This document shows positions 10,754 to 53,716 of a DNA stretch of 64,000 nucleotides, in pieces. This stretch comes from an uncultured Gammaproteobacteria bacterium. GTDB taxonomy: Bacteria; Patescibacteriota; Patescibacteriia; CAZGFX01. How positions within the stretch are numbered: position 1 is the stretch's first letter; each line of letters opens with the position of its first letter. Where the stretch lies: contig CAZGFX010000002.1 in the NCBI GenBank assembly GCA_964524845.1, positions 85,389 to 149,388 on the forward strand. Reading direction: 5' to 3'. The notes under the pieces were generated by a model, which ran no database searches, had not been told where the DNA came from, and worked only from the letters and a program-made list of their open reading frames with translations. A program made the translations under genes and the position numbers.

Positions 10754-12568
10754 CTATTTTTTATTTGCCAAAACAGTGGCTTTTATACGACGAATTCCAG
10801 CCGAAGAAGCCTCTTCTTTAAGTATTTTAAAACCCTCTAATTCAGCGGTATTTTCAACATGTGGTCCACCACAAATTTCTTTTGAAAAATCTCCTATAGA
10901 ATAAACTTTTAATTCATTCATCTTATTGTATTTTTCATCAAAAACACCCATTGCACCTGATCTTTTGGCATCTTCTCGACTCATGGTCTCGCAAGTAACC
11001 GGAAGTGATTTTTTTATTTGTTCGTTTACAATATCCTCGACTTTTTTTAATTCTTCTGGTGTAACTTTTTGTGGATTAGGAAAATCAAACCTAAGCCGTT
11101 CCGGAGTTATGTTTGAGCCTTTTTGTTCAACATGATCCCCAAGAACCATACGAAGAGCTTGTAAAAGCAGATGACTTGCTGTGTGAAGACGTACATTCTC
11201 TTTTGATGTATCGGCAAGTCCCCCTGCAAATTTCTGTGTTGCGCCCTCACGAGACTTGTTTTGGTGCTCTTTAAATAATTTTTCGAACCCTTCTTTATCA
11301 ACTCCAGCGAAACCATACTCAACGGACATTTCTGCTATTAACTCAAAAGGATATCCGTATGTCGTATATAAATCAAAAACATCTTCTCCGTTTAAAATAT
11401 TTCGATCAGAATATGTTCTAATCTTTTTATCAAAAACTCTTTCACCTTCTTGTAGTGTTTTTCTAAATAAATTTTCTTCTCTTTCAAAAGCCCCTAATAT
11501 AAATGATTGACGTTCATCAAGTTCAGAATAATAAATTATATATTGATCAATAATCAGTTTTGAAATTGTATTTAATATGTGTTCGTGTATGTTAATTTTA
11601 AAAGCGTTACGAATAGCTCGACGCAATAATTTACGCACAACATATCCCTGATCAACGTTTGATGGTCCCACTCCGTTTCTATCTCCAGTAATTATGGTAG
11701 CGGCTCTAATATGATCAGCAATAATACGAACGGATCTACGTATTAAATTATCTTGTTCGTATTGATATCGAGACAATTTACCCATTTCGAGTATTTTATC
11801 AATTATATTTCTAAAAATATCCGTCTCGTAAACACTCGTGCAACCATTCAATACGGCAAGAGTACGCTCAAGCCCCATGCCAGTATCAACGTTTTGTTTA
11901 TCAAGTTTCTCAAGAGCACCATTCTTGAAAGAAAACTCCATAAAAACATTATTCCATATTTCAACCCACCTAGAATCAGATGTGTCGAATTTATCAGGAG
12001 CAGGAGTGTCATTTGGTACCCAATAAAAAATTTCTGTATCAGGTCCACAAAGCCCATCAATACCCATCTTTGGCCACCAGTTGTTATCATCTCCCATAAA
12101 TTCAATTCTTTTTTCATGAACTCCCAAACTAATCCATTGTTTATACGAAACATCATCTTTAGGAACATTAAACTTTTCATTTCCTTCATAACACGTGAAG
12201 GCCAGGCGCTTCGGATCAAGTCCAAGCCATTTTTTATCTGTCAAAAACTCATAGCTCCATTCTATAGATTCCTTTTTAAAATAATCACCAAGAGACCAGT
12301 TTCCAAGCATTTCAAAAAAAGTAAGGTGGTTATCATCTCCAACCTCATCAATATCATTTGTGCGAATGCATTTCTGATAATTTACCAACCTATTTCCTGA
12401 TGGATGAATGTTTCCTGATAGATAAGGAACAAGTGGTTGCATTCCTGCCGTATTAAAAAGTACCGTATTATCGTTTTCTGGAATTATAGAAGCAGAAGGA
12501 ATTGCTACGTGTCCTTTTGATTCAAAAAATGATATAAATTTTTTCTTTAGATCGTCTGATGTCATCAT
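10754..12568 (-). CDS. alaS: alanine--tRNA ligase, short form (catalytic + editing domains, no C-Ala domain)
   Basis: 604 aa; N-terminal class II AlaRS core (FNTAGMQP...WSLGDYFK) and editing-domain HxxxH...CGGPH motifs (HTASHLLLQALR...ICGGPHVENT). Confidence 0.9.
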   Translation of the reverse strand: MMTSDDLKKKFISFFESKGHVAIPSASIIPENDNTVLFNTAGMQPLVPYLSGNIHPSGNRLVNYQKCIRTNDIDEVGDDNHLTFFEMLGNWSLGDYFKKESIEWSYEFLTDKKWLGLDPKRLAFTCYEGNEKFNVPKDDVSYKQWISLGVHEKRIEFMGDDNNWWPKMGIDGLCGPDTEIFYWVPNDTPAPDKFDTSDSRWVEIWNNVFMEFSFKNGALEKLDKQNVDTGMGLERTLAVLNGCTSVYETDIFRNIIDKILEMGKLSRYQYEQDNLIRRSVRIIADHIRAATIITGDRNGVGPSNVDQGYVVRKLLRRAIRNAFKINIHEHILNTISKLIIDQYIIYYSELDERQSFILGAFEREENLFRKTLQEGERVFDKKIRTYSDRNILNGEDVFDLYTTYGYPFELIAEMSVEYGFAGVDKEGFEKLFKEHQNKSREGATQKFAGGLADTSKENVRLHTASHLLLQALRMVLGDHVEQKGSNITPERLRFDFPNPQKVTPEELKKVEDIVNEQIKKSLPVTCETMSREDAKRSGAMGVFDEKYNKMNELKVYSIGDFSKEICGGPHVENTAELEGFKILKEEASSAGIRRIKATVLANKK

Positions 12569-12569
12569 A

Positions 12570-13745
12570 TTATTTCGTATCTTTTATTCGAATAGTGATA
12601 ATAATCGTTGATAATATTAACAAACCAACAATTAAAATCAATTCTTGTATTCCTGCGAATAACAAAACCAATGAAGCAAGAGCTACGGTTCCTAATCTAG
12701 AAACACTTGTAATTCCCCTAAACAGCATAATAAGAGTGCGATCAGTACTTTCTACTTTTTTAAAAAAATATGTCTCAGTCATAATCTCATAAAGAGCTGC
12801 TCCTATACGTGCTACAATCATCAATATTCCCCAAATAACCAAAGAAGAACCTGTGTACCATCCTATTCCTATAACACTTAATCCCATAACAAACACTCCT
12901 GTAATCATCATTTCTTTTTCTCCAAAAAATCTATCGGCCAAATCTCCGGCAAAAGTATCAATAACAACAAAAGGAACTAGCGCAAAAGAGATTACCAGAC
13001 CTATTTCAGACCAAGATAGACCTATTTCATTTTTAAGGTATATAGGCACGTATATCCACATCAATGTGTAAAATATATATAAAAATGCGTTTAAAATAAT
13101 AACTCGGGCTATATCTTTTTTATTTTTAAACGCATCTAATAACACACGAAAAACATTTTCACATATGTATAATTTTGTTTTTTCAACAATTGTGTGTTCG
13201 CGCATGTATCTAACAAGAACTATAAACATCGCGACGACAACCACTCCTACAAACCAAGAAATAAACGAATAGTCATACTTTTCAAAAATCCTACCGGAAG
13301 CATACGTCGCAACGATCAAAACTAAATTTGTAAGTGCAAGATATAATCCCCTTACAAACCCCATTGATTCGTGACCTGTATACGACTCAATATATACATC
13401 CGTGACATATCTTTGTACAAAATCAGCGAGAAAATAAATTGCGAATCCGACAATAACTAGGTGAAAATATCCTGTTCCGAGCCCAATCAAAGAAAGAGCA
13501 AACATTATTAAATTTACAAATGCAATATAATAAATATTTGTACGTTCATACCAACGAGGAGCCGCCACAACAAGCAAGACAATTAAAAAATATATAATAG
13601 TATAAAGAATACTCATCTTTTCGTCTCCAATCATTTCCGCAACCTTCACGGATGCAAATGTATTGATAAGACCGAATATAATATATGTTCCAATTCCTTG
13701 AAAAAACGTGCCCAGAATCTTTTTATTTTTTAACGTATTAATCAT
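12570..13745 (-). CDS. MFS-type transporter (putative)
   Basis: 391 aa, about 12 TM helices; family assignment from topology only. Confidence 0.5.
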   Translation of the reverse strand: MINTLKNKKILGTFFQGIGTYIIFGLINTFASVKVAEMIGDEKMSILYTIIYFLIVLLVVAAPRWYERTNIYYIAFVNLIMFALSLIGLGTGYFHLVIVGFAIYFLADFVQRYVTDVYIESYTGHESMGFVRGLYLALTNLVLIVATYASGRIFEKYDYSFISWFVGVVVVAMFIVLVRYMREHTIVEKTKLYICENVFRVLLDAFKNKKDIARVIILNAFLYIFYTLMWIYVPIYLKNEIGLSWSEIGLVISFALVPFVVIDTFAGDLADRFFGEKEMMITGVFVMGLSVIGIGWYTGSSLVIWGILMIVARIGAALYEIMTETYFFKKVESTDRTLIMLFRGITSVSRLGTVALASLVLLFAGIQELILIVGLLILSTIIITIRIKDTK

Positions 13746-17726: not shown

Positions 17727-18038
17727 ATGAACAAGGTGCAAATGCTAACCGCCATAATAGAAGAATTACAAATATTAAAAGTAGGTCACGGCGAAGACCT
17801 TCTTGAGTGGCCAATTATAAGAAATCAACTGGCAAAGAAAGATTTCAAAACTCCAGATGAGTTTTTAAACGAATTAAAAAATTATCTAGACACAGTACAC
17901 TGGTTAGATGACAAAATACCAGGAACAGTAATAGGGTTTACAAAACACATTATCAAAACAATCAAAGCATGGGAAAACCATACAAAAAACAATAAACAAA
18001 TCAACAAAAGAACCAAGAAAGAAAGGGTAAAAAAATGA
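17727..18038 (+). CDS. hypothetical protein
   Basis: 103 aa; AAGGAG RBS upstream; overlaps start of next gene by 4 bp. Confidence 0.5.
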   Translation: MNKVQMLTAIIEELQILKVGHGEDLLEWPIIRNQLAKKDFKTPDEFLNELKNYLDTVHWLDDKIPGTVIGFTKHIIKTIKAWENHTKNNKQINKRTKKERVKK

Positions 18039-18937
18039 AAAAAGGTATCCTCCTCACTTTGATCGCCATAATGACTTTTGTCATTATAAATGACGCTCAT
18101 TCACAAGACTCCACATCATCAAAGCCGATTATAATGCAGGTTCAAAACCTGATAGTAAATAAGTATGCCGGCCTCTTGGTTGTGTATACGTCTCCGAAAG
18201 AAGATAATTTCAGAGTCTCGAAGACTCATTCTTTCCAGATCGGCATTCAGACAAAAACACCTGTTTTTGGTGGACCTGTTTTTTTAGAAACAAAAGGTGC
18301 TTTTCTCTTGAAAAACGATTACCAGGAGACGTTCGGTCATGCATATTTTTCTTACTATAGTGATCGCTTCTTTTGGACTGCCGGGTATCGTTTACGAACG
18401 ACCGGATATATTAAACCGAATCCGATAGGTCATGCCGGACACTTCGTACCAAGCGCACTTAATTATCTTCCTCTAAATGCAAATGGGGCGCTTATCGGAA
18501 CACGAATTGGCAGTTTCGTATTTAAAGGTGGCGCGTATCAAAACTTAAAAGAAAACAAGATTGGTTTTGATTACGGAGTAGATTGTTTCTTCTCCGATAT
18601 TACCACTATAACAGTGGCAGCAACTCATGAGCAAAAAAAAGTAACTCTTGGAACCTGGGTCGATATTGGGCCAAAGGAAAAACCTTATGCAACTTGGAAG
18701 ACCGCCTATAATGATTCGATCGTAACTGCGTTTGTAGAGGTAAACACCAAGTGGTGTAGTCCTTATATAAACGCCGTGCGTGATTATGACAAAAAAACAA
18801 ATGTGACTTTTGAAATAGGATGGACTAAGACGATGCCTGCTGGACTTGGAAAAAGCAAGCTTCTGATCGGATATGGAGTTCTACCACTCAAAAAAGAACG
18901 AAGACATAACTTATACATCTTCGCATATATTGAATAA
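18035..18937 (+). CDS. hypothetical secreted protein
   Basis: 300 aa; N-terminal signal peptide MKKGILLTLIAIMTFVIINDAHSQ; aromatic/Gly-rich, likely beta-rich. Confidence 0.55.
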   Translation: MKKGILLTLIAIMTFVIINDAHSQDSTSSKPIIMQVQNLIVNKYAGLLVVYTSPKEDNFRVSKTHSFQIGIQTKTPVFGGPVFLETKGAFLLKNDYQETFGHAYFSYYSDRFFWTAGYRLRTTGYIKPNPIGHAGHFVPSALNYLPLNANGALIGTRIGSFVFKGGAYQNLKENKIGFDYGVDCFFSDITTITVAATHEQKKVTLGTWVDIGPKEKPYATWKTAYNDSIVTAFVEVNTKWCSPYINAVRDYDKKTNVTFEIGWTKTMPAGLGKSKLLIGYGVLPLKKERRHNLYIFAYIE

Positions 18938-18998: not shown

Positions 18999-20132
18999 TT
19001 ACTGAACTTCAATAAATTTTTTATCTTTTATTTGCACTGGTAATAACTTCATATTAATCTCCCTATTCGATTTTACAGTTACCGGACCGTTTACAGTTTC
19101 AATGGTGCCTAAATTTAAAAGACTCTGAAGAATATCTTTCTTTTGAACCTTGTTTTTTTCATTAACAACTTTTTCAAATATTTTTACAACATCATAACCA
19201 AATGACGCTGCCCATATAGGAGTAATACCATATGTATCAGAGAATTTTTTATTAAATTCGTTTCCTGTTTTACCAATAACACTTGGTAGCGTGGTTGTAT
19301 AAACTCCTTCTGAAAGGTTTTTATCATCAACAAACAAAGAATTATATAAAGATGCGTTACCGATAACAGCCAGCATTTGTTGTGAGCATTCAATAATATC
19401 AGAATTAAAACCAAGATCACGAGATTGTTTCAACAACAAAACAGCCTCTTGTGGAGTAAGAGGAACGGTTAAAAGAGCGTCGGGTTTTGATTCCTTTATT
19501 TTCATAAGTTGTGTACGCATATCGGTTGTATTGGAAATATAAAATTCTGATACTATTACATCAATATCATTTTTCTTGGCTAAATCCATAATAGCATTAC
19601 TCATGCTTACTCCATACTCATCATTAACAGCTAATATGGCTATTTTTTTATATAGTTGTTTTTTTATTATCCAATCGAAATGTGTCTGAGCAGTATCCGC
19701 TGGTGTAACAAAAAAACGAAAAGCATATTCACTTCCCGCAGGGGCATTTTCAGCAGATACAACACTCATCAAAAAAGGAATTTTATCTTCTTTTGAAATA
19801 GGAACTAGAGGCATACTTGCTCGACTAAGTATTGAGAACATTGCGTCAACATGATTAATATCTTTTAATTTTTTCCATGCAACCACAGATCCGTTTGCAC
19901 TACCTTGACTATCTTCATATATTATATTAACTTTTTTAATATTACTTTCTTGTAGAGCGAGATCCATTGCCTTTTTAACGTGTTCTCCATACAACGCCGT
20001 TGGCCCCGTAATAGGAAGTATTGCTCCAATAGTAATGCCACCGCCCTCTTCTTTATTTGTCTTTTGCATTATTGTGTATATAACAACAATAACTATTAAT
20101 AAAATAATAGCTAATAAAATATTTTTTTTCAT
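18999..20132 (-). CDS. ABC-type substrate-binding protein, LivJ-like (membrane anchored), second copy
   Basis: N-terminal TM anchor; GAILPITGPTALYGEHVKKAMDLALQESN... PBP type 1 pattern. Confidence 0.7.
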   Translation of the reverse strand: MKKNILLAIILLIVIVVIYTIMQKTNKEEGGGITIGAILPITGPTALYGEHVKKAMDLALQESNIKKVNIIYEDSQGSANGSVVAWKKLKDINHVDAMFSILSRASMPLVPISKEDKIPFLMSVVSAENAPAGSEYAFRFFVTPADTAQTHFDWIIKKQLYKKIAILAVNDEYGVSMSNAIMDLAKKNDIDVIVSEFYISNTTDMRTQLMKIKESKPDALLTVPLTPQEAVLLLKQSRDLGFNSDIIECSQQMLAVIGNASLYNSLFVDDKNLSEGVYTTTLPSVIGKTGNEFNKKFSDTYGITPIWAASFGYDVVKIFEKVVNEKNKVQKKDILQSLLNLGTIETVNGPVTVKSNREINMKLLPVQIKDKKFIEVQ

Positions 20133-20167
20133 AACAAGTTTAATAGTTTATAAATTATATCTTAAAA

Positions 20168-20857
20168 CTAAAAATATTTTCTCTCTTTTGATTTTTTGAC
20201 TATTGCAAAAGCTTCTTCTGCTGTATCAACAACCTTAAACAAATTAAAATCCTCCGGCGATATTGTCTGAAACTTTTCAAGCATTTTTTCTTTCATAAAA
20301 TCAACAAGCGGATCCCAAAAATCCTTACCAAGAAGTATAATTGGTAATGGATCTATTTTTTCAGTTTGTACAAGAGTCACGATCTCAAAAAACTCATCTA
20401 ATGTTCCAAATCCTCCAGGAAAATACACATATGCTTGAGACGACGCCGAAAGCATTACTTTACGAGAAAAGAAATAGTGAAAAGCGATCGATGTGGTCAC
20501 ATATGGATTAATACGTTGCTCAAGAGGAAGCTCTATATTGAGTCCGACTGACATTGCATTAACATTTTTTGCCCCCCTATTTCCGGCCTCCATAATACCA
20601 GGTCCCCCTCCTGTCACAATTGCAAATCCCTCTTTGGCAAGAAGTTCGCCTAGTCTTACAGCTTCTTTGTAATATTTATTATCTTCCGGTAGACGAGCCG
20701 ATCCGAAAAAAGTAACTCCCCGATGAATCTTTCCAAGATACTCAAATCCACGCACAAACTCCGCCATAATACGAAACATGCGCCAATTCGGATTATCATT
20801 AAAATCAAATTCGACCTTGCCCGGGATACAAAACTGTTTCTTTATCTCTGGTTGCAT
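20168..20857 (-). CDS. LOG family protein (TIGR00730-type Rossmann-fold nucleotide-binding protein)
   Basis: GVTFFGSARL...IVTGGGPGIMEAGNRGA...YVYFPGGFGTLDEFFE motifs. Confidence 0.85.
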   Translation of the reverse strand: MQPEIKKQFCIPGKVEFDFNDNPNWRMFRIMAEFVRGFEYLGKIHRGVTFFGSARLPEDNKYYKEAVRLGELLAKEGFAIVTGGGPGIMEAGNRGAKNVNAMSVGLNIELPLEQRINPYVTTSIAFHYFFSRKVMLSASSQAYVYFPGGFGTLDEFFEIVTLVQTEKIDPLPIILLGKDFWDPLVDFMKEKMLEKFQTISPEDFNLFKVVDTAEEAFAIVKKSKERKYF

Positions 20858-20923
20858 AAAAGGTAATAATTAAAATTCGTAATATGATATATTATAATAC
20901 ACATAGTATTATAACATGTGATA

Positions 20924-22411
20924 TCACTTTAAAACAAATGTTTCCTCAACTGGCGCACGAAGCGTTTCCGAAAGCACATACGTACTCTGTGAATCAGTAC
21001 ATACTCCGTGTATTGGTGTGTTATCTATACGACGAGCCGTTTTAAACTCTATGTAAAATGGAGAATTATTAAATTCCTCTGGGTATGATACGAATTCTGG
21101 AGGTGTGTTTGGTGTATTATATGTAAATACAAATGTACTTTTTGACTGAGCTGGAATTTTAATAGGAAATACTATTGTTTTTGCACCGTATTCATTATAA
21201 AAATCATACATATCAAGCGGAAGTACTTTTTTGTTTTCTTGCTGAATTCCAAAAACCTCAGCTATTGCATCTGGGTGTACATATATTTTTTCAAGCATCG
21301 TCACATCATTGGAAGATGTGTTTTTATAATCAATCCATAAAGTATTTTTGAGCGACACATTCTCATATGTCATTCTTCTCTCATATGATAATGATAAATT
21401 TTTCTTACATTCTGACTCCATACAATCATGATGTATTGAAAAAACATCTTTTGTTTTCTGACCAAAAGGATATACTGGTAAATTATTTTTTAAAAAAACA
21501 TCACGAAGAGTCATATTGGTAGTATATACATACATGTTCCCATTTTGAATTGCATAAAAAAGCTTATCATATGAAAAACCAGAGCACGAACCTTGTTCTG
21601 TAGTACTTATAAGCCCACACAAAACATCTGTCGAGAAATTATCAATTTTTATTAATGTATCAATTCCATATTTTGCACGAAGAGTTTCAAAGACATAAGG
21701 AGGCCTAGCTATCCACTTATCATTTTTTAAATCATCGTTGTTTTTATAATACCGAGCCATCATCTTCTTCTCCTCCTCGTTTATTACAAAAGGTATTTGA
21801 TCGCTCGTGCTTTCTAATTTCACACTGTCGTTGTATTTTTTATACACTGAAAATTTCTGTAATTTTCCACCAAAAAAATCATATTCTTCACCACTCACAG
21901 TTGCTACACCGAGCGTTTGTAATGAGTTTTTTATAGAAACATAAATCTCTTCGCCTTTGAATTTCGCCGCATTCGTATTAATGCTTCCTGAAAGATTTTT
22001 TACAAATTGTTCAACGGGTGATTTAAAAAAACTAGTTTGTATATCATCTGTCTTTATAAAAGAAGTAAATTTCTCATCAGAAAAATTATAACCCAATATG
22101 TACTCTTTTGTATGTTCTATAATTGATTTAACAATATGTATGTCTGAACGAAATCTAGGTAGAATATCAGCGATCATAATACGATCAATTTGTTTTTCCA
22201 TCGTCTGTAGTTTCTCCAACACAAGGTCAGACCTATTCTCATCAGTTGAGCTTGTAAGAATATTAATAAGCGAATGAACGCGCACGACATCAAGAACAAT
22301 TATAAAAACAAGTGCGATACCACATATTATATAAGCAAAAAACCGTATTTTCTTTAAAACAGAAATTTTCCTGTATGTATCAAGATCCTTCACAGGACGC
22401 GTTTCTTCCAT
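20924..22411 (-). CDS. hypothetical membrane-anchored protein (last gene of ATPase module)
   Basis: 495 aa; single N-terminal TM (FFAYIICGIALVFIIVL), large extracytoplasmic domain; 12 bp downstream of the ATPase gene. Confidence 0.5.
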   Translation of the reverse strand: MEETRPVKDLDTYRKISVLKKIRFFAYIICGIALVFIIVLDVVRVHSLINILTSSTDENRSDLVLEKLQTMEKQIDRIMIADILPRFRSDIHIVKSIIEHTKEYILGYNFSDEKFTSFIKTDDIQTSFFKSPVEQFVKNLSGSINTNAAKFKGEEIYVSIKNSLQTLGVATVSGEEYDFFGGKLQKFSVYKKYNDSVKLESTSDQIPFVINEEEKKMMARYYKNNDDLKNDKWIARPPYVFETLRAKYGIDTLIKIDNFSTDVLCGLISTTEQGSCSGFSYDKLFYAIQNGNMYVYTTNMTLRDVFLKNNLPVYPFGQKTKDVFSIHHDCMESECKKNLSLSYERRMTYENVSLKNTLWIDYKNTSSNDVTMLEKIYVHPDAIAEVFGIQQENKKVLPLDMYDFYNEYGAKTIVFPIKIPAQSKSTFVFTYNTPNTPPEFVSYPEEFNNSPFYIEFKTARRIDNTPIHGVCTDSQSTYVLSETLRAPVEETFVLK

Positions 22412-22423
22412 ATTAAATAAAAA

Positions 22424-24316
22424 TTATCTTTTATGAATCGAGATTGGTTGACGTGAAAGCGCCTCTTTAAGGCTTATGGGAGCGGGTTGTGTCACTTGTT
22501 GTAATGGTGTTTGTTGTTCGGTGTGTTCTTTCTCACGAGAAACAGGAGACACACCAAAACGAGAAGGTGTTTTTGATAATAGTGGATTTCCCATTGATGG
22601 ATTTCCCATTGATGGTGATTGGGACGGCTTGTTTCTTTCTCCTTTTGTAAAAGAGTTTTCGCGATCTATAATATCTGTAATACGATGTTCTATTGCGTTT
22701 GGATTTTCCATTATCGCTTTTTGACGTCTGTATACAGCAAGACAATCTTTACAGAGCACTGGGCGTTTCCCGTCTGGTTTAAATGGTACCATTGTTTCAT
22801 TTCCACACCCATCGCATTTAGTTTCAAACATTTCTTTTTGTGCTGGCAAATCGCCCGTTTCTGTTTGTGGATATTGTGCGCTTTGCGTATTTTGTGAAAA
22901 AGAAGAATATTGACTAGGTGCTTGTATGTGCACTTCTTGTGTTTTTTCAAAAACAGGTTGCTTGGGAGATGTTTGTGTCGAATAAGGCGATGGTTCCTCT
23001 ACCTTGTGTACAACGGCTGTACTTAATATGCCACCAGGAGCATGTGCCCACAAACGAATACCCTCTTCAACCTCAGCACGCGGTCGAGCATATTTCTTTC
23101 TGGTGAGTTCTGTAATTATTTTTTCCGTTTCAACGCTTTTTGGAATTTTAAATGTGTTTAGTGTGTTTGCTGAAAACGCATCAGACGTAACCCCATTCAC
23201 CATAAGCTTAATATAACATGTTGCCAACTTGAGATTTACAAGGTCGTTTTTCGTAAAATTAGGAGCAAACTCTTTCTCAAGGAAATCAGCATCATCGGCA
23301 CCAACTCGAAATGAAAGAAGTGTTCCAACATTTCCGAACACTGCGTTGCGAACCTCATCAATAAGCTGTTGAATATACTGATGCGCTATAATAAGATTCA
23401 AACGATATTTTCGGGCTTCTGATAATATTCCAGCGAAAGACTCTGTAGCAAAGTTTTGAAACTCATCAACATATAAATAAAAATCCGGACGTTCGTTTTC
23501 ATTAACAATATCAACCCTGCTCATAGCCGCCATCTGAAGCTGTGTAATAATCATAGCACCAAGAAGTGCTGAATTATCCTCGCCAATTCTTCCTTTTGAA
23601 AGATTAACGATTAGAACCATCTTATTATCCATGATATGACGAATATCGACAGGGCTTTTTATCTGGCCAACGATGTTCCTCATCATTGTTGATGATAGAA
23701 ATTGTCCGACTTTGTTCTGTATAGGAGCCGTTGCTTCAGCTTTGAGTTTGTCCGGATATTTAGGATACTCATCAAGCCAAAATGTTCTTACCGATGTGTT
23801 CTTTACATATTGTAATACATTTTTACGATAATCATTATCAACCAATATTCTCATGATTCCAAGCATCGTACTTTCGGGATATTCCAAAAGAGCGAGAATA
23901 GCATTTCGAAGCACATACTCAAGGCGAGGACCCCATGAATCAGCCCATATCTTTTTAAATACAGCGACAAGTCCTGATGCGACCAGATGGCATTGGGCAG
24001 GATTATGAACGTGCATAACATTAAAACCTATTGGAAACTCCGTATCTGAAGGATTAAAATACACAATATCTTCATATCTGTTTGGCGGAATCATTTTAAT
24101 AATATCTTCGGCATATTCTCCGTGCGGATCAATCAGGGCAACACCCTCTCCATTATAAATATCCTGTATAATCATGTTTTTGATAAGAGTCGTTTTTCCC
24201 ATACCCGTCTTACCAACAATATAAAAATGCTTGCGACGATCTTCTCGCCTAATACCAAACTTCACCGATTTGTTTCGATAATTTGTTTCAGCGAATATAT
24301 TTAAATCTTTTGGCAT
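22424..24316 (-). CDS. VirD4/TraD-like coupling-protein-type P-loop ATPase (FtsK-HerA superfamily) with C-terminal C4 zinc ribbon
   Basis: Walker A GKTGMGKTT, Walker B-like FYLYVDEFQNF; C-terminal CDGCGNE...CKDCL plus low-complexity tail. Start set to ATG at 24316 (track start 24367 is TTG and overlaps upstream gene). Confidence 0.65.
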   Translation of the reverse strand: MPKDLNIFAETNYRNKSVKFGIRREDRRKHFYIVGKTGMGKTTLIKNMIIQDIYNGEGVALIDPHGEYAEDIIKMIPPNRYEDIVYFNPSDTEFPIGFNVMHVHNPAQCHLVASGLVAVFKKIWADSWGPRLEYVLRNAILALLEYPESTMLGIMRILVDNDYRKNVLQYVKNTSVRTFWLDEYPKYPDKLKAEATAPIQNKVGQFLSSTMMRNIVGQIKSPVDIRHIMDNKMVLIVNLSKGRIGEDNSALLGAMIITQLQMAAMSRVDIVNENERPDFYLYVDEFQNFATESFAGILSEARKYRLNLIIAHQYIQQLIDEVRNAVFGNVGTLLSFRVGADDADFLEKEFAPNFTKNDLVNLKLATCYIKLMVNGVTSDAFSANTLNTFKIPKSVETEKIITELTRKKYARPRAEVEEGIRLWAHAPGGILSTAVVHKVEEPSPYSTQTSPKQPVFEKTQEVHIQAPSQYSSFSQNTQSAQYPQTETGDLPAQKEMFETKCDGCGNETMVPFKPDGKRPVLCKDCLAVYRRQKAIMENPNAIEHRITDIIDRENSFTKGERNKPSQSPSMGNPSMGNPLLSKTPSRFGVSPVSREKEHTEQQTPLQQVTQPAPISLKEALSRQPISIHKR

Positions 24317-24320
24317 ATTT

Positions 24321-25901
24321 TTATTTTTTATTATCGAGATTAAACATCGTGTCAGGATTATAATCAAGACTTAATTTTTGAGCATCTTGTCCTTCTTTAG
24401 ACATAATTTCTTCATCTTCTTCTTCGCCGCTTGGAATAAATGCTTTCATAAAATCCTCCCCTGGCTCATTTGTTCGTGCAGAAAGTGAAACATCTAACTC
24501 AGATGCAACAGGAAGACCGGGAGACACGGCATTCGGATCGTACCTGTGTTCATATTCTTTATTTGTCATCATGTCATCATTGATAATCGCCATTGGAACA
24601 CCTCCTCCAGGAAGAATTTTTCCGACGGCTTGTATATCAAAAGACGGATCTCCTATTGGCAACGTAACAGGAGCGGATGATTTTGCCGCTTCTACAGTCT
24701 TAATGAGAGTTGCTTTTATGTTTGCGGCTGGGAAGTGATACATCGTGGCAAGTTCCTGCCCTGTCATAATCATCGGTGCATCTCCTCCCATACTTCTTTC
24801 TTTAAATAAACGTACCATCTCTCCTTGTTTTGCAGACAATTTTTCAGGAACTTTGAAATAAGCGTCTTTTATTTCTGTTACGGATGTGGAACTTGGCACA
24901 ATACTATTAAGCCCAAGTGAATTAAACTGATTTAATGCTCCTATAATTGCAACGATGCCTCGTTCTTTTGAATAAACTTTTTTATGAGCAATATAAAGAA
25001 GACGCATTTTCGTCTTGAATGCATATTGAGAAATTTTTTCAGCAACTCCTTTTGCGACTTGTTGTAGATACGGATCATCATCTTTTGCTGCTGTTTTTTC
25101 TTCTTTTTTCTGAGCAGCAGACCCGGCTGGAATACCAAATGATAATATCCATTCGCTGAAATTCCATAGTGCATCAACAACCCACTGAACAAACTTATCT
25201 CCTGTATGTTCTTTTGCGGCTGGTTTTCCATCCTTACTCTTAAGACCAGCCAGAAACTTCTTTCCATCTTCGTTCCATTTTGAATCCTGAGGAGTAATTA
25301 TAAATTGTAGTGCCACCATTTCTCCTGTGCGTATTTTTGACAAATTTTCAATTATTGATGATATCGGATCAAATTTATCACTAATTTGAGAAAACGTCTT
25401 TATTGGAATATAACTTTCTTTTTTAAAAACAAAATCATTTGCCCATACCGTATATGATGATTCTATTTCATGAACATCTTTTGGAACATCGTCCATATAA
25501 TCTCTGACTTCTGCTATTTCAGCATCCGGATACTGTGCGAATAATGCTGCTTCTATAAGATCACGAATTACAACTGGGCATCTTACCAAAAATTGAATAT
25601 ATCCTTCTATACTGATTAGCTCAAAACTGATCGTATGACCAATAGAAGAAGATAGAGCAACAAAAACATGTTCAACGGCCATAAGGCCTTGTGTATTAAC
25701 ACGAGGAATATCAATTGCGAGAAGAATGTATTTTATTTCTTCTTTTTTCTTTTTTGATTTTTCTTTTTCATTATGTGCTGTGATCAGCATATATAAAAAA
25801 GCTCCCAGGATTAAAAAAGCACCACCATACGTAAAAAACAGTATGGTGAGTTGCCAGGGACTTTCCCCTAAAATATGTATGAGTTCGGCAATCATCGGCA
25901 T
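24321..25901 (-). CDS. hypothetical membrane-anchored protein (first gene of ATPase module)
   Basis: 526 aa; N-terminal TM (LTILFFTYGGAFLILGAFLYMLI), acidic C-terminal tail; stop 4 nt from ATPase start. Confidence 0.5.
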   Translation of the reverse strand: MPMIAELIHILGESPWQLTILFFTYGGAFLILGAFLYMLITAHNEKEKSKKKKEEIKYILLAIDIPRVNTQGLMAVEHVFVALSSSIGHTISFELISIEGYIQFLVRCPVVIRDLIEAALFAQYPDAEIAEVRDYMDDVPKDVHEIESSYTVWANDFVFKKESYIPIKTFSQISDKFDPISSIIENLSKIRTGEMVALQFIITPQDSKWNEDGKKFLAGLKSKDGKPAAKEHTGDKFVQWVVDALWNFSEWILSFGIPAGSAAQKKEEKTAAKDDDPYLQQVAKGVAEKISQYAFKTKMRLLYIAHKKVYSKERGIVAIIGALNQFNSLGLNSIVPSSTSVTEIKDAYFKVPEKLSAKQGEMVRLFKERSMGGDAPMIMTGQELATMYHFPAANIKATLIKTVEAAKSSAPVTLPIGDPSFDIQAVGKILPGGGVPMAIINDDMMTNKEYEHRYDPNAVSPGLPVASELDVSLSARTNEPGEDFMKAFIPSGEEEDEEIMSKEGQDAQKLSLDYNPDTMFNLDNKK

Positions 25902-25941
25902 GGACGATTAAATGAGGAGCCAAACGAACTAGCGTCGCTAA

Positions 25942-27024
25942 TTATACGAGTGTATATGCTCCGTTTTCTAATTTCTTAAATTTCTTTTTATTCATAAGAG
26001 CGAGTACAATAGTGCTCTTTTTTACCATACGTTGCTTGAGTACGTGCTCTGTGATCTCATCTTTAGTTAATGGTTTTCCTACAGTACGAAGCACTTCTTC
26101 AATAACATCGGCAACGACACCTGGTTTATATCCCCATTCTTTAAGGGCATACATACCGCGTCCAATAAGAACATATTTCTGATCAAGAATAAGTTCGTTG
26201 TGAACTGTTGCTGGATGAGCTTTTTTCTTGTCTTTAAATACCTCATTAATTCTACGAGCAATATCAGTAAAATGCATTGGGTGTCCTTCTTTCTTTAGAA
26301 CAAGATAAATCTTATCGTTAATTTTCTTCGGAGTTACTGTAGGCCAGTTAGCCTTTCCCCACTCTCCATATACATTCTTTTCAATAAGTTTACTTAACTC
26401 AAGAAGAGAAAGTAAAAAATTATTTGTCACCTTATCTTTATTCTCATTAAAATGACGTGTTTTTGAAAGACGTTCCTCTATATGAGTTTTCTGCATAGGA
26501 TCTGACATGGAATCAAAAATTTCATGTAAAACATCTAACGTTTTTTCTACAAACTGATCATCAACATGCTTCAATCTCCACGAACAATACATCTTGTCGT
26601 GTTCCTTGTGACAATTAAAGCTATCCTGAGTAAAATTACGCAATAAGAAAATAAGAATGTTTTTCTTTACATCACCAGCTTCAGCATCAGCAACAAGTCT
26701 ATCAACAAGATATTGCTCATGCATGACTCCGCCATATTCAAGAAGAAGATTTCGTATAACATTCTTTACTGGTTCGATTACCTTACCAAGAACTTCGCTA
26801 TTTTTAAGTTTCTTAATAGTAGCGTTTTCTACTTGTCGAATACGTTCGCGAGTAACGCCATAATGTTTGCCGATCTCTTCTAGAGTTTTAATTCTTCCTC
26901 CATCAAGAGCGTATCGACCACCAATAACGCCAGTTTCACGATCAGTTAAACCAGCAAACAAAACCTTAACGATTGATTCCAAATCGATGTTTTTGTTTGC
27001 AACATGTTCTTTATTATTTGTCAT
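25942..27024 (-). CDS. sigma-70 region-4-like HTH protein with C-terminal HARE-HTH-like domain(s)
   Basis: N-terminus LTDRETGVIGGRYALDGGRIKTLEEIGKHYGVTRERIRQVENATIKKL matches sigma-70 region 4; C-terminal ...HPMHFTDIARRINE...YVLIGRGMYALKEWGY resembles HARE-HTH. Confidence 0.55.
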   Translation of the reverse strand: MTNNKEHVANKNIDLESIVKVLFAGLTDRETGVIGGRYALDGGRIKTLEEIGKHYGVTRERIRQVENATIKKLKNSEVLGKVIEPVKNVIRNLLLEYGGVMHEQYLVDRLVADAEAGDVKKNILIFLLRNFTQDSFNCHKEHDKMYCSWRLKHVDDQFVEKTLDVLHEIFDSMSDPMQKTHIEERLSKTRHFNENKDKVTNNFLLSLLELSKLIEKNVYGEWGKANWPTVTPKKINDKIYLVLKKEGHPMHFTDIARRINEVFKDKKKAHPATVHNELILDQKYVLIGRGMYALKEWGYKPGVVADVIEEVLRTVGKPLTKDEITEHVLKQRMVKKSTIVLALMNKKKFKKLENGAYTLV

Positions 27025-27162
27025 ATCCCTTTTAGATTACGGCTAAACTCTAGCATGTAAATTATTTTAAGTCAATAGTTTGAAGCGAAATGACCCACAT
27101 GCCAAAAAACTAGAGTTTTAAGCCAATATTTGTCTATTGTATGTTATAATTAAATATATTTA

Positions 27163-28065
27163 TTAACGTGAGCGATACTTATCCCACAATATTAATAATG
27201 GACTTGCAATAAATATTGATGAGTATGTACCAACAATAATACCAATAACAAGTGCCAAAACGAAATATTGAATTGTCGTTCCACCAAAGAAAAACATTGA
27301 GAGAAGAACAAACAAGGCTGTCGAAGACGTATTAATAGAACGAACAAGCGTTTCATTAATACTTGTATTAATAATATCTTTAAATGAGCTATGTTTATCT
27401 CTTAAAAGATTTTCTCTTACTCTATCAAACACAACAATTGTGTCATGAACGGAGAAACCAAGAACTGTAAGAAGTGCTGTTATAAACAAGCTATCAATTT
27501 CAACCCCTTTGAAATGTCCTAAGAAACTAAATATTCCAGCTGTTATTGTAACATCATGCACTAGTGCGATTATGGCCGCAAAACCATACACAAACGATGA
27601 TATTGGTTTTGATACCTTACGAAATGCATATGCTATATATATAACAATACCTATAAGAACTAATATAATAGAAAGGTAAGCGTTTCGTTTCGTTTCGCTT
27701 CCTATAACACTTCCTATAGAATCAAAACGACGCTCTTCTATCTTGTTTTGATCTTTCTCATATGTTTTTTTGATATCGTCTATAAGTTTTGCATGATCGT
27801 CAGCCGAAAGTTCTTTCGTCTTTATGACAATCGACGTATCTCCAAGTGGTTGTACTTTCGCATCAGCAAAACCATTGTCTTTTAAAACACTTGCTATGTC
27901 TTTGGAATCAGGACGAGGACCCGAAAAAGATATTTCGACAAGCGATCCTCCTGTAAAATCAATATTTGGCTTGAGCCCCCAAGCGATAAGTGCTGTGGCG
28001 CTTATAAGTACCAACAAAACCGACAGGCCGAGAAAAATCTTGTTATATTTTACAATGTTAAACAT
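27163..28065 (-). CDS. secF: protein translocase subunit SecF
   Basis: 300 aa; FTGGSLVEISF..., 6 TM, directly downstream of secD. Confidence 0.9.
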   Translation of the reverse strand: MFNIVKYNKIFLGLSVLLVLISATALIAWGLKPNIDFTGGSLVEISFSGPRPDSKDIASVLKDNGFADAKVQPLGDTSIVIKTKELSADDHAKLIDDIKKTYEKDQNKIEERRFDSIGSVIGSETKRNAYLSIILVLIGIVIYIAYAFRKVSKPISSFVYGFAAIIALVHDVTITAGIFSFLGHFKGVEIDSLFITALLTVLGFSVHDTIVVFDRVRENLLRDKHSSFKDIINTSINETLVRSINTSSTALFVLLSMFFFGGTTIQYFVLALVIGIIVGTYSSIFIASPLLILWDKYRSR

Positions 28066-49525: not shown

Positions 49526-52500
49526 TTAGTACGTAGTAACAGCACCGAGAACAGGCAACGACGGTGAGAATGTAGAATTAACAGTTGTTGAGTTGTCGAA
49601 CGCTGAGATATACGAGTAAGGAACAGGGCCTGCGGTTGCAGGGAATGGGCCAGCTGAACCCTCGAGACGACTAGAAAGCGTCACATTAGATTGAACCGGA
49701 GCTGGTGCATTAGCACCATCCATCTTGATGTTTGAGGTGTTAGCATAGAGTCTGAACTCTTTTGAATTACCCTGAGTAATCGTAATTGCTGATGTAAGCG
49801 CGAACTGTACCGTCTGAGAAGAGACAGTAGCAGTAAGTGTAGCTGGGATCGCCACATCACTTGAATCCTTAAGAACGTAACCGGTAACTTTACAATTTGT
49901 GATTGTAACACCGCTACACGCTGGTACGATATCACCATCGAACGAAGAGAAAGGACCGTTTGAACCGGAGATAGTAAATGTGATTTGAGTCATAGTGAGA
50001 TCTCTTCCACCATCAGCCTTAATGCTGTATTTGCCAATCATTTGATTAGCCTGTGGAGCTAGTGTCGTATTTGACATTGTGCTTGTCATAACAGCAACAA
50101 CATCATCGGCTCTGTGTACTCTTATCGCATGCTTAGCATTTGTATAGAGAGCACCAGCTGTTCCAGCTGCGTTTTCTGTCATGTTAATAACATAAACACC
50201 TGCCGTACCATAAGCCGTATCTCCAATTGTTGGAGCTGTTGTAAGAGTTGATAATGCGGCACCGATTGCAACGCCTGCTGCATTTGTAACAACAGCGAAG
50301 CCTGTGGATGCGGTTCCTACAGTATCAGCTACGAACACTAGGTCACCTGGTTCATAAACTACTTCAGCATTTGTGCTTGTATTATCAGCAAGACCCAGTC
50401 TTGAGATTCTATAAGCACTTGACCACGTAGTTGTACCAGCAGCGCTGTTGAAAATAACAGTACCACCGTTAAAATCAGCTACGTTTGTTGTAATGCCATA
50501 CGCTGGATATGTAACACCAGCAGTAGCACCTGTAGAATAGATGAACTGGCCACTAACAGAAGATTGTGTTCCGTTTGGCAAGAATGTATCAGCTGCAGTA
50601 AGAGTACCTGCAACTTCCTGCGACAAGTTTGATACGAGACCGACTGAGTCGATGTCGAATATAACAGGCGCGATCAGTTGAGTAGCAGCTGCATTTGTAG
50701 CAAGAGCTTGAATAGCAGCGGCATCAGCCTTTACAGTCAATACTTTTGAGCTTCCCTTCTCAACTGAAACAGTTAAACCAGAGAAGCTTGCTTCGTATCG
50801 AGCTGAAGTGCTGTTGTACTGCAATGGCTGTTCGCCAATCTTCGTAGCGCCATCATAGAGATATACTCTTGTGATGTTCTTATCGAAGTTGAGGCCTCCC
50901 ATGACAATCTTACTGATCTTCGCACCTTCAACTAGGTTGGAAGTGAATTTGAAGTCAGCGAGGTTTGCCATAGTCTGGCTTGCAACGATGATAGACGAAG
51001 ACACTGCGGATGTCGGATCATACGAGAAGCTTAGTAAGCCACCCGTCGTTGACATCGTCATGATCTGAAGATCGGTTGCAGCTGCAGTCAAAGACTTGTT
51101 TGATGGTACTGCGACACCAGTAGCTGCTGCCGTAAGCCTCAATGAAGCATTATCAGAAACACCAGATGAAGCAATAGAACCAACAACCCGAATTTGAACA
51201 GATGCATTTGCAGCTAGGTTCAATTCTCCAGAAACAGAGAATGTTGGTGAGCTAGCCGGAGTCGACTGTGTATCACCAATCTTGACCCATGCTGAACCTG
51301 ACCACTTGTAAAGCATAACGTTGGAAATTTTGTTTCCAGCAAATGCATTTGTATTCGCGCCAGTTGGGAATGTATTTCCAGCTGTTCGTGTACCAATGGT
51401 AAAGTTCGAAACATTTGCACCCTCAGCAGCAGCCGTTGAAAGAACGAACTGTGCTAGAGGAGCGGCTGTAGAACCGGTAACGATAGTAGTGCTTGGCAAT
51501 GAGTTATCAATAGCAATATTCATTGAAGAATCTTCTACTGACAATGTGTTTGCTGGAACACCAGATGTATGAAGACTAACACCCGCTCCTACAGAAGTAC
51601 TACCATTTGTTTGGTTAAGATTGCTTGAAAGAAGTTTAACTTCCCATCCATTCAAAACACCCTTAATCTGACTATTTATAGGGAAGTGAGTAGAATCGGA
51701 AGATTCGCTCTTCAATTGAGCAACTAATTTAACCTGTTTTGTCTGGCCGGCAGGAATCGTGAGATAAGGAGACAATGTGTACTTAACAACATAATATGTA
51801 TTTGCGGCAATAGATCCTTTCGGAACATTTACGTTTGATACAGAAGATGCTATTGAGTTATTGTTTCCATCCCATAGACCAGCTGTGTCAAGATTTCTGT
51901 TTGTACCAGCTGTTCCATCGGTTGCGTAACCAACATAGATTACACGAACCTCTGTGTCTTCACCAGCAGCAACAAAATCATATACACCTATCGTTTGGTT
52001 TGAACCTGCAGCCACCTTATTTGAAGGAGACGATGGAGATAAACCTAATGACTGTGTACCCTGATTAATGTTGTGTAATGAGATATTATCTGATGAGGAA
52101 GTAATTTTATCACCAATTGGGAAAGTTGTGTCATTGCTTGTATCAACTTTAGGCAAGAAACTTACGCCGGTCTCAAGACCACGAAGCGTTATGTCTTCTG
52201 CTTGTTCTACAACAAGTTGAAGTGTTCTGCTTGTCCCACCAATAACATCAGCTTTTACAGTCAATGTTACGGTATTGCCTTCTGCCATTGACAATCCGGT
52301 CGTCGTAATGACAGCCTGATTGTTTACATTAAGCGACGAAACAGAACCAATAAGAGCACCGGTTGATTCGTTATATACTTTTATATTCTGTATATCAGAT
52401 GCAGTTGCAGTACCTCTGTTTGTAAGAACGATTCGATCTATTGCAATCTGCTCGTTAGTTACTTCAAAGATTTTGAACTGCGCAATAACTTCTCCTGTGT

Positions 52501-53716
52501 CGCCAACATCAAGATTCTGAGAATAATTTCCTACAGAACCGATGCGGGCACTTCCAAGTAAGGTGCTACCATCAATAATAGACATTTCATTGCCTCTTAT
52601 TGGAAATGTTCCACGAACAGTACCACCAGAAATAGTGATGCCTGTAGCAGACTCAATTCCGAGCGCAATTGTACCATTATTATTACCTGCCTCTACAATG
52701 TCAGCAGCTAGATAAACAGTAGTTGTCTGACCGGCAGTCAATGCGATAGGATCGCTTGTGAAGTTAATAGTTGCATAACCATTATACAAGCTTACCGTAC
52801 CACCATGACGGTTGTTGTTTGAATCAAGAATTTTGACACCTTCAAGTATATTATCACTTGATACGCCATATCTCTTGATTGTAACTCCAGTCAAGTTTAC
52901 CGCAGTGCTTGCGCCGTTGGTAACGTTGATTGCAGTCATTTTAAAGTTACCAGCTCCATCAGGTACAGTCATAGAAGCTGGAGTGCTTGAAGCCAATGAG
53001 AATGTGATATCTCCTGAAATAACTGGAGAACCACCACCTGTTGGATAATCCAACAAAGTAGTCTCAAGGCCTGTGATAGAAGTACCGATATTGAATGCAG
53101 ATACTGCGCCAGCAGTAACTTCATGTACAAACTCGTTTCTGAACATGTTTGCAGTGAATGCAGACTCAGAAGCGAATGGGCGGCGTTTGCTACCCTCAAT
53201 ATAGTACTTAGTACCATCTACTTTTATCAATTGACCGGTTGGGAACTGGTTCACCGTAGAAATTGCGGTGCCGGTATGATAAGTAGCGGCGAATGTATTC
53301 GGATTAATATCTTTGATCCACTGATTCCAGTTTGATCCGAATAATGAAGCTGCGATTGTTTCAGAGCCGACGTGGCGAATTGAAGCGCCATTCTCGACTG
53401 CATAGGTCTCGGAAAAATCCGGAACCTTAACCATCCAAGTACCAGAGCGAACGCCCATAGTACCAGCTAGATGGAATGCAGCGAAGTCAGCATCAGAAAC
53501 AGTCTGCACAGCATCGAAATTTTCATATCGAGAAAAGAACTCGACTTGTGAAGGGAAAGTGTACAAACCATTGTTTCCGCCTACGAAATATACGGTCGTT
53601 GAAGATGCTTTCTTAACGAGAGCTCCTTCATTGTAAGTAGCTGCTGCTACATCTGTGTAGATGAGAAGCGATGCCACTACCGTGAACAAGGCAAAAACTT
53701 TTCTGAATTTACTCAT
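49526..53716 (-). CDS. large secreted Thr/Ser/Ala/Gly-rich surface protein (putative S-layer or adhesin-like)
   Basis: 1396 aa; signal peptide MSKFRKVFALFTVVASLLIYTDVAAA; N-terminal pair of about 85-aa repeats, then long low-complexity region; no LPXTG. Gene is much more GC-rich than surroundings. Confidence 0.7.
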   Translation of the reverse strand: MSKFRKVFALFTVVASLLIYTDVAAATYNEGALVKKASSTTVYFVGGNNGLYTFPSQVEFFSRYENFDAVQTVSDADFAAFHLAGTMGVRSGTWMVKVPDFSETYAVENGASIRHVGSETIAASLFGSNWNQWIKDINPNTFAATYHTGTAISTVNQFPTGQLIKVDGTKYYIEGSKRRPFASESAFTANMFRNEFVHEVTAGAVSAFNIGTSITGLETTLLDYPTGGGSPVISGDITFSLASSTPASMTVPDGAGNFKMTAINVTNGASTAVNLTGVTIKRYGVSSDNILEGVKILDSNNNRHGGTVSLYNGYATINFTSDPIALTAGQTTTVYLAADIVEAGNNNGTIALGIESATGITISGGTVRGTFPIRGNEMSIIDGSTLLGSARIGSVGNYSQNLDVGDTGEVIAQFKIFEVTNEQIAIDRIVLTNRGTATASDIQNIKVYNESTGALIGSVSSLNVNNQAVITTTGLSMAEGNTVTLTVKADVIGGTSRTLQLVVEQAEDITLRGLETGVSFLPKVDTSNDTTFPIGDKITSSSDNISLHNINQGTQSLGLSPSSPSNKVAAGSNQTIGVYDFVAAGEDTEVRVIYVGYATDGTAGTNRNLDTAGLWDGNNNSIASSVSNVNVPKGSIAANTYYVVKYTLSPYLTIPAGQTKQVKLVAQLKSESSDSTHFPINSQIKGVLNGWEVKLLSSNLNQTNGSTSVGAGVSLHTSGVPANTLSVEDSSMNIAIDNSLPSTTIVTGSTAAPLAQFVLSTAAAEGANVSNFTIGTRTAGNTFPTGANTNAFAGNKISNVMLYKWSGSAWVKIGDTQSTPASSPTFSVSGELNLAANASVQIRVVGSIASSGVSDNASLRLTAAATGVAVPSNKSLTAAATDLQIMTMSTTGGLLSFSYDPTSAVSSSIIVASQTMANLADFKFTSNLVEGAKISKIVMGGLNFDKNITRVYLYDGATKIGEQPLQYNSTSARYEASFSGLTVSVEKGSSKVLTVKADAAAIQALATNAAATQLIAPVIFDIDSVGLVSNLSQEVAGTLTAADTFLPNGTQSSVSGQFIYSTGATAGVTYPAYGITTNVADFNGGTVIFNSAAGTTTWSSAYRISRLGLADNTSTNAEVVYEPGDLVFVADTVGTASTGFAVVTNAAGVAIGAALSTLTTAPTIGDTAYGTAGVYVINMTENAAGTAGALYTNAKHAIRVHRADDVVAVMTSTMSNTTLAPQANQMIGKYSIKADGGRDLTMTQITFTISGSNGPFSSFDGDIVPACSGVTITNCKVTGYVLKDSSDVAIPATLTATVSSQTVQFALTSAITITQGNSKEFRLYANTSNIKMDGANAPAPVQSNVTLSSRLEGSAGPFPATAGPVPYSYISAFDNSTTVNSTFSPSLPVLGAVTTY

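Follow-up and report, generated by a model that had tools for sequence, protein, structure and literature searches.

We analysed a window of 64,000 nucleotides (positions 85,389 to 149,388 of contig CAZGFX010000002.1, from an uncultured bacterium that GTDB places in the Patescibacteriota) and describe here one locus in it, which encodes a soluble VirD4-like ATPase and its membrane partner. Positions are counted from the first letter of the window, that is, of this whole stretch of DNA. The minus strand of the region 20924-25901 consists of three co-oriented open reading frames (ORFs), encoding in order a protein of 526 aa, the ATPase of 630 aa and a protein of 495 aa. A first-pass annotation, made from the sequence letters, had regarded the three as one module, and the tight packing that it described is present: 4 nt separate the first gene from the second (TAA-aaat-ATG) and 12 nt the second from the third (TAA-tttttatttaat-ATG). 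These ORFs are not chance ones, since two of them have large homologue families and the third is 495 codons long in a stretch of 33-38% GC. Public names for the three proteins were sought by a cluster look-up, which returned none.

The ATPase is encoded at 22424..24316 (minus strand). Read mechanically, its ORF spans 24367..22424 from a TTG; starting instead at the ATG at 24316 gives 630 aa, in agreement with the public gene call. Residues ~1-430 of the chain form a nucleotide-binding domain that includes a helical insert; a disordered linker leads from there to a zinc ribbon, which is followed by a tail of low complexity. For comparison we used an alignment of 26 diverse homologues, in which invariance was judged, and 83 related loci (80, each from the genome of a different species, taken from more than 600 matches to an ATPase profile, plus three earlier loci), whose ORFs were scanned with profiles. 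The Walker A motif GKTGMGKTT, read from the sequence, occupies residues 35-43 (24188..24214, minus strand), and its G35, K36, G38, G40 and K41 are invariant. The Walker B motif YLYVDE at residues 280-285 (23462..23479, minus strand) runs on into FQNF, with Y280, Y282, V283, D284, E285, F286, Q287, N288 and F289 all invariant, so that both motifs named on first reading, the second as DEFQNF, held up across the homologues. Between them, the AlphaFold2 (AF2) model contains a helical block (~106-230; predicted local distance difference test, pLDDT, 72-93) that is spanned by the Pfam match and may correspond to the all-alpha domain of TrwB.

The CxxC-x17-CxxC motif that had been noted near the C-terminus proved to be a treble-clef zinc ribbon at residues 494-527 (22736..22837, minus strand). 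All four of its cysteines (C501, C504, C522 and C525) are invariant, and it scored above the cutoffs of both Pfam zf_Tbcl_2 (PF23477; 52.5 bits, cutoff 27, 3.9e-14) and TIGR04272 (57.5 bits, cutoff 36, 7.8e-16). Its pLDDT in the AF2 model is 76-91, and a strict regular expression found it in 64 of the 83 relatives. Binding of zinc by this domain type has been demonstrated on small proteins of Methanosarcina mazei (PMC12704099). The zinc-ribbon module sometimes stands apart from the ATPase: in locus L079 (6255-7988) a 577-aa zf_Tbcl_2 protein lies between the DUF8128 gene, described below, and the ATPase gene. Two other loci (L082:10114-10470 and L068:4444-4779) have small ORFs downstream of the ATPase that resemble the C-terminal portion of its profile. 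Beyond the ribbon, Tandem Repeats Finder (TRF) confirmed the perfect 15-bp tandem duplication reported earlier (22583-22615, minus strand; 2.2 copies, 100% match), which encodes PSMGN-PSMGN. The tail that holds it cannot be aligned between ATPase homologues, and the duplication is most simply explained by replication slippage in a low-complexity, non-conserved tail, not as a functional feature.

A hydropathy scan predicted a membrane anchor in each of the two flanking proteins and no hydrophobic segment in the ATPase, as had been supposed. The same holds across the family: an N-terminal transmembrane (TM) domain was found in 0 of the 83 ATPase relatives, with Walker A beginning at residues 34-57 in all of them and at 35 in the window protein. 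The homologues number more than 8000, at ~50-58% identity, and all of those with names are from Patescibacteria; the nearest is 56% identical, which suggests that the source lineage is poorly sampled within the phylum.

Three Pfam families matched the ATPase above cutoff, namely TrwB_AAD_bind (1.4e-14), DUF87 (1e-10) and TraG-D_C (1.2e-4), and its best sequence matches in the PDB were TrwB and DotL. It shares with VirD4/TrwB, the type IV coupling proteins (T4CPs), the nucleotide-binding domain with its Walker A and B motifs, but their N-terminal TM domain is missing here. Membership in narrower families was not found: the ATPase fell far below the cutoffs of the NCBIfam models for conjugative VirD4/TraD (47 bits against 250 for the CD1115-family VirD4, of which it is not a member), NCBIfam VirB4 models matched only its P-loop stretch (31-69 and 32-70), also far below cutoff, and hhalign of its profile against TrsK or TrsE gave matches at the level of the P-loop only. 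HerA and FtsK were not its closest relatives in the sequence and structure comparison. By sequence, then, we classify the ATPase as a motor of the VirD4/VirB4 clade that is closest to coupling proteins. Of the FtsK-HerA/VirD4 affinity first proposed for it, the VirD4/TrwB part stands and the HerA/FtsK part does not.

The gene directly upstream (24321..25901, minus strand; 526 aa, or 524 in the public gene call) encodes a protein with a DUF8128 domain (PF26449), an assignment made by precomputed Pfam annotation for this protein and for nearly all of its listed homologues. Our own scan of a Pfam library gave 0 hits, in a release that lacks the PF26449 model, and an NCBIfam scan gave nothing usable. 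A single TM helix is predicted at about residues 18-42 (25776..25850, minus strand) by the hydropathy scan and falls within a long helix (residues 15-55) of the AF2 model. By the positive-inside rule, the lysine-rich stretch HNEKEKSKKKKEE that follows it would put the large DUF8128 domain on the cytoplasmic side. Strong motifs stand out when 35 homologues are aligned. Following the N-terminal helix, the model has a confident alpha/beta core at residues 58-400 and a disordered acidic tail at 403-526. Many DUF8128 proteins end, after a disordered acidic linker, in short conserved motifs (D/E-x-x-K/R-F-G or PPxNLP-F/I/V) that might be docking peptides; the tail of the window protein (24324-24695) is longer and ends differently from those of its relatives.

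When the DUF8128 model was searched with Foldseek, the top 12 hits were all chains of TrwK, the VirB4 protein of R388, with E-values of 2e-5 to 7e-4. Structures limited to the VirB4 C-terminal domain or to a coupling protein (4ag5, TrwB, DotL) were absent from the hit list, so that the match is to the VirB4 N-terminal domain. As modelled, the DUF8128 core thus shows the fold of a VirB4 N-terminal domain. In TrwK, which acts with VirB3, the two regions belong to one protein; here they would be two polypeptides, with only the DUF8128 fold matching the N-terminal region of TrwK. The locus further differs from VirB4 systems in having no VirB3, VirB6 or VirB8 genes nearby.

The pairing of the two genes is conserved. 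Among the 77 related loci with enough upstream sequence, 64 have DUF8128 directly upstream of the ATPase on the same strand, the two genes being separated by a median of 9 nt. A small single-TM protein of 80-140 aa takes the place of DUF8128 in six loci (L020, L023, L030, L032, L035 and L060). The order in this variant, for example at L023:4157-10491, is NrdR, NrdD, NrdG (a radical SAM protein), the small TM protein, a split-type ATPase and an RNase_T-family exonuclease.

One of the related loci, L016, also contains a single ORF of 831 aa (11200-13695) that matches the DUF8128 profile at residues 6-395 and the ATPase profile at 405-825, 9.4 kb from the split pair of the same locus. By BLASTP, the window ATPase is 42% identical to this fusion (1e-105) and the window DUF8128 protein 24% (3e-18), in end-to-end alignments. 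From more than 583 relatives in a metagenome scan with the L016 protein we kept 80 loci (L089-L168). All 80 contain a single ORF matching both profiles; 70 of these are complete, with a median of 841 aa, and the architecture is TM, DUF8128, ATPase, with the zinc ribbon in none of the kept loci. The phage family phrog_5156 (824 positions) likewise matches the window DUF8128 protein, at 78-330, and the window ATPase, at 391-804. In a rough neighbour-joining tree of ATPase cores, fused (52) and split (79) sequences were reciprocally monophyletic, and the loci without an adjacent DUF8128 gene nested inside the split clade. Adjacency across the phylum and fusion in a paralogous family together show that the DUF8128 and ATPase genes are inherited together and behave as one unit; of the three genes first grouped together, the upstream membrane protein is therefore a real functional partner. 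The fused genes have neighbours of their own. An uncharacterised protein of ~165 aa lies upstream in 53 of the 80 loci and a second cluster (~158 aa) in 10 more; downstream are an uncharacterised ~215-aa protein (27 loci) and dnaX (43 of 80), with CysS, CorA and L27 nearby. The published count of 5,713 homologues in 2,918 genomes (PMC12102498, excerpts) would be consistent with both types of paralogue being present in each genome.

Relatives also occur outside the Patescibacteria. Weaker homologues found by tblastn came from plasmids (Streptomyces, Bacillus, haloarchaea and Sulfolobus) and from Bacillus phages (SPO1-like and G); two of the phage records (KF669649.1, 93740-94963; JN638751.1, 91999-93105) contain hypothetical proteins 24-27% identical to the ATPase core. 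On plasmid CP085709.1 of Bacillus sp. CMF21, an 870-aa "DUF87 domain-containing protein" matches both the DUF8128 (8e-11) and the ATPase (1e-45) profiles. Its gene heads a cluster (L171, 14695-27446) that encodes a replication-relaxation relaxase, conjugal transfer proteins, a VirB4-sized ATP-binding protein, a large conjugal transfer protein and a lytic transglycosylase/C40 peptidase, in which we read VirB4-like, VirB6-like and CwlT-like genes after the relaxase. We take this gene order to be that of ICEBs1, with the 870-aa gene in the position of the coupling protein. The plasmid protein has the same two modules as our locus but in one chain and within a full conjugation cluster; it also differs in its ~28% identity, in lacking a predicted TM helix and a zinc ribbon, and in being plasmid-borne, on a plasmid that MOB-suite classes as non-mobilizable. 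Since this fusion occupies the place of the coupling protein in a conjugation cluster, the combination of DUF8128 with the ATPase looks like a type of coupling protein used by monoderm conjugative elements. That reading fits the published derivation of the Patescibacterial type IV secretion system (T4SS) from monoderm conjugation machinery (PMC12102498, excerpts).

The closest described parallel to the pair is a T4CP without a TM domain. In pIP501, the VirD4-class ATPase TraJ lacks an N-terminal TM domain and is encoded directly after the gene for a membrane protein, TraI, as in our locus, and such T4CPs, partnered by a membrane protein, have been recognised as a subfamily (PMC7434980). A soluble coupling protein beside a membrane protein that would tether it is what we found here too, with the tethering itself inferred. 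Some Patescibacterial lineages even have a small single-TM partner as in the TraJ/TraI type. More usually the partner, a small membrane protein in that type, is a protein of 400-530 aa with a cytoplasmic fold resembling the VirB4 N-terminal domain. The Patescibacterial ATPase differs further in its CxxC-x17-CxxC zinc ribbon, and whereas TraJ and TraI belong to a conjugative element, the Patescibacterial genes are chromosomal and phylum-wide, without relaxase or mating-pair-formation genes nearby.

Within the Patescibacteria themselves, the ATPase almost certainly belongs to the family of VirD4-like T4CP homologues counted by Quinonero-Coronel et al. 2025 (PMC12102498, excerpts), a match based on shared properties and not on their gene lists: the annotation is the same ([quoted passage not shown]), there are about two per genome, and they are rarely near virB4 (148 of 5,713). 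The relation first suggested to the T4SS-like genes of Saccharibacteria is reasonable in family terms, but these homologues almost never lie beside virB4. The excerpts analyse the virB4 neighbourhood and make no mention of a DUF8128 partner, split and fused types, the zinc ribbon or the sigma-factor-like neighbour described below.

The third gene of the locus (20924..22411, minus strand) has a different standing. Its 495-aa product is predicted to have an N-terminal membrane anchor, a single hydrophobic helix at about residues 24-40 by hydropathy, and a large extracytoplasmic domain. It matched only itself among 5.8 billion clustered proteins (word-indexed search) and among 1.84 billion representatives (full HMMER); it had no Pfam, NCBIfam, PADLOC or PHROG hit, and none of the 83 related loci encodes a relative. 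What follows the ATPase varies by lineage (MnmA, PGK, LOG, glycosyltransferases, pilin-domain proteins and others); 30 of the downstream ORFs in related loci are singletons and the rest form small clusters. In one Moranbacteria locus (L002:9827-12595), two proteins of ~450 aa come directly after the ATPase, each with an N-terminal T4SS_pilin match (PF18895) of 26.9 bits against a cutoff of 26.6. Given the 12-nt spacer, the 495-aa gene is probably co-transcribed with the ATPase, but it is not conserved along with the pair: we regard it as a surface ORFan specific to its lineage, outside the module. The three genes do not co-occur in relatives, and what survives of the proposed triad is its two-gene core.

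Upstream of the pair, at 25942..27024 (minus strand), lies a gene for a 360-aa protein with sigma-70 region 4 at its N-terminus (Pfam Sigma70_r4, 1.6e-12) and two HARE-HTH stretches (1.8e-11), whose PDB hits were to region 4 of SigA/RpoD only. Of 70 loci, 50 have such a gene ahead of the pair in the same orientation, often itself preceded by SecD-SecF. Its median gap to DUF8128, 105 nt, is looser than that within the pair. A function in association with RNA polymerase or in DNA binding is possible.

The wider window is a core chromosomal setting, remote from T4SS genes. It encodes SecD, SecF, a LOG-family protein, two periplasmic binding proteins, MnmA, MFS transporters, AlaS, RpoA, S4 and many glycosyltransferases, with no channel-forming component and no nuclease or methylase partner among its genes. 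GC content ranges over 30-44% with no island at the locus, and promoter and terminator predictions for 20000-27400 were no more numerous than in shuffled sequence. Two other places in the window stood out. At 49526-53716 (minus strand), beside a subtilase and in the GC-richest part (0.40-0.44 against ~0.34 elsewhere), a 1396-aa ORF without a Pfam match may encode a giant surface protein or mark acquired DNA. The other place, 17727-18937, has a pair of overlapping ORFs of 103 aa and 300 aa on the plus strand, neither with a family match, in a region otherwise almost wholly minus-strand; a minus-strand gene for a periplasmic binding protein lies on either side of them.

How might the pair work? 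With modest confidence, we favour the view that the core of the locus is a two-gene, split and membrane-tethered ATPase of the VirD4/VirB4 class, a vertically inherited chromosomal feature of the Patescibacteria, whose motor most plausibly serves a T4SS encoded elsewhere in the genome. The DUF8128 subunit would hold the motor against the cytoplasmic side of the membrane and perhaps regulate it, in a role analogous to that of the N-terminal TM domain of VirD4, of VirB3 with the N-terminal domain of VirB4, or of TraI for TraJ of pIP501 (PMC7434980). The motor would oligomerise into an ATP-driven ring that engages or translocates a substrate, most likely nucleic acid or nucleoprotein, recognised through the zinc ribbon and the variable tail. 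The T4SS that it would most plausibly serve is one whose own cluster lacks a coupling protein, as the Southlakia T4SS cluster lacks a recognisable one (PMC10633639); that absence, together with the ancestry of the ATPase, is why we favour a coupling role. Several observations weigh against this view. The resemblance of DUF8128 to VirB4 is a structural one, since hhalign of its profile against pGO1 TrsD and TrsE/VirB4 found nothing, Pfam CagE_TrbE_VirB did not match the protein and its profile had no hits in a PDB sequence search; the Foldseek TM-scores to TrwK are low (~0.3), and confidence in the ATPase model is moderate (pLDDT 64). VirB4- and VirB6-like genes had been proposed as something to look for elsewhere in the genome; family scans of the 64-kb window turned up neither of them, nor a gene for a pilin, relaxase or integrase. 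Linkage to a relaxase or to mating-pair-formation genes was thus not seen in the window, nor within 8 kb in the flanks of 163 related loci by a weak test, in which two Firmicutes VirB4 queries in phmmer returned only weak cross-hits to the ATPases. Finally, the VirD4-like homologues are more widespread than VirB4, in 2,918 of 3,035 Patescibacteria genomes (96%) against 80%, and in S. epibionticum the homologue is non-essential for epibiotic growth while the T4SS is essential, for which the authors raise exaptation (PMC12102498, excerpts).

These last two points speak for a role independent of the T4SS, which we regard as possible though clearly less probable: the split ATPase and its fused paralogue would be membrane-associated enzymes that translocate or remodel DNA or nucleoprotein of the cell itself, with replication, segregation and repair as possible settings, and would descend by exaptation from a coupling protein of conjugation. 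Besides the wider distribution and the non-essentiality, such a role is favoured by neighbours in DNA metabolism, namely dnaX beside the fused paralogue and, in one split-type lineage, nrdR-nrdD-nrdG on one side and the RNase_T-family exonuclease on the other; the frequent upstream neighbour is a putative DNA-binding protein with sigma region 4 and HARE-HTH, and the genes lie always in core syntenic neighbourhoods. However, gene order in reduced genomes need not mirror function, the gap between 96% and 80% could in part reflect incomplete metagenome-assembled genomes or profile sensitivity, and redundancy between the paralogues could explain the reported non-essentiality. Of the homologues whose gene context hints at a role, moreover, the nearest takes the place of the coupling protein in a conjugation cluster. 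An ftsK gene is annotated in at least one Saccharibacterium, TM7x (PMC10768705), which leaves no obvious vacancy for a segregation motor and weakens the idea that the pair replaces FtsK. We find it doubtful, but worth stating, that the pair is a phylum-wide motor for nucleic-acid import or handling, an architectural intermediate between VirB4 and VirD4 that would pull in or process host-derived RNA or DNA at the membrane, possibly through the T4SS tube. Uptake of host RNA has been reported with a mechanism that "remains unresolved" (preprint 10.64898/2026.06.21.733656), and an import motor, if real, would fill that gap.

Two further explanations carry little weight. That all three genes form a minimal, self-contained device for translocating DNA or protein seems highly unlikely. 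The co-oriented packing, the predicted membrane anchor of the 495-aa protein and the pilin-domain proteins that follow the ATPase in the Moranbacteria genome are what such a device might lead one to expect, but the 495-aa protein has no detectable homologue and, with its single TM helix, no polytopic, channel-like architecture, and other lineages have unrelated housekeeping genes in its place. For the device proposed in the first-pass annotation, the window moreover offers no channel-forming component and no gene for VirB4, VirB6 or a relaxase. Equally hard to sustain, and if anything less probable, is an anti-phage defence module or the remnant of an integrated conjugative or phage element. 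PADLOC did give partial hits of the ATPase to mad8 (1e-15), HerA and DndH, plasmids and Bacillus phages (SPO1-like and G) do carry homologues, and a PHROG exists for the fused form. Yet PADLOC had no hit for the DUF8128 protein or the 495-aa protein, the family is near-universal in the phylum at ~55% identity and holds a fixed position among core genes (SecDF, MnmA, AlaS), and the locus has neither a GC anomaly nor an integrase, relaxase, nuclease or methylase partner. Its core, phylum-wide and syntenic distribution is why we reject the defence reading.

Ultra-small and dependent on host cells, the Patescibacteria account for much of bacterial diversity, and the T4SS is essential in the one species tested, with no coupling protein in its own cluster. 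The ATPase family itself is already annotated and counted (PMC12102498, excerpts), and in the literature that we searched these near-universal "orphan" VirD4-like ATPases have been counted but not dissected. There we found no description of the DUF8128 partner (the term DUF8128 itself did not appear), of its fold resembling the VirB4 N-terminal domain, of the split and fused paralogues or of the Firmicutes homologue at a coupling-protein position. What the present analysis adds is the fixed pairing with DUF8128, an anciently diverged fused paralogue and an architecture held in common with an uncharacterised protein in the coupling-protein place of a Bacillus conjugation cluster; two genes and one paralogue are thereby offered as testable targets. 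For specialists on T4SSs and on Patescibacteria, the locus is of interest as a putative two-partner coupling protein of the kind without a TM domain, and an architecture that bridges VirB4 and VirD4 bears on how the two ATPase families diverged.

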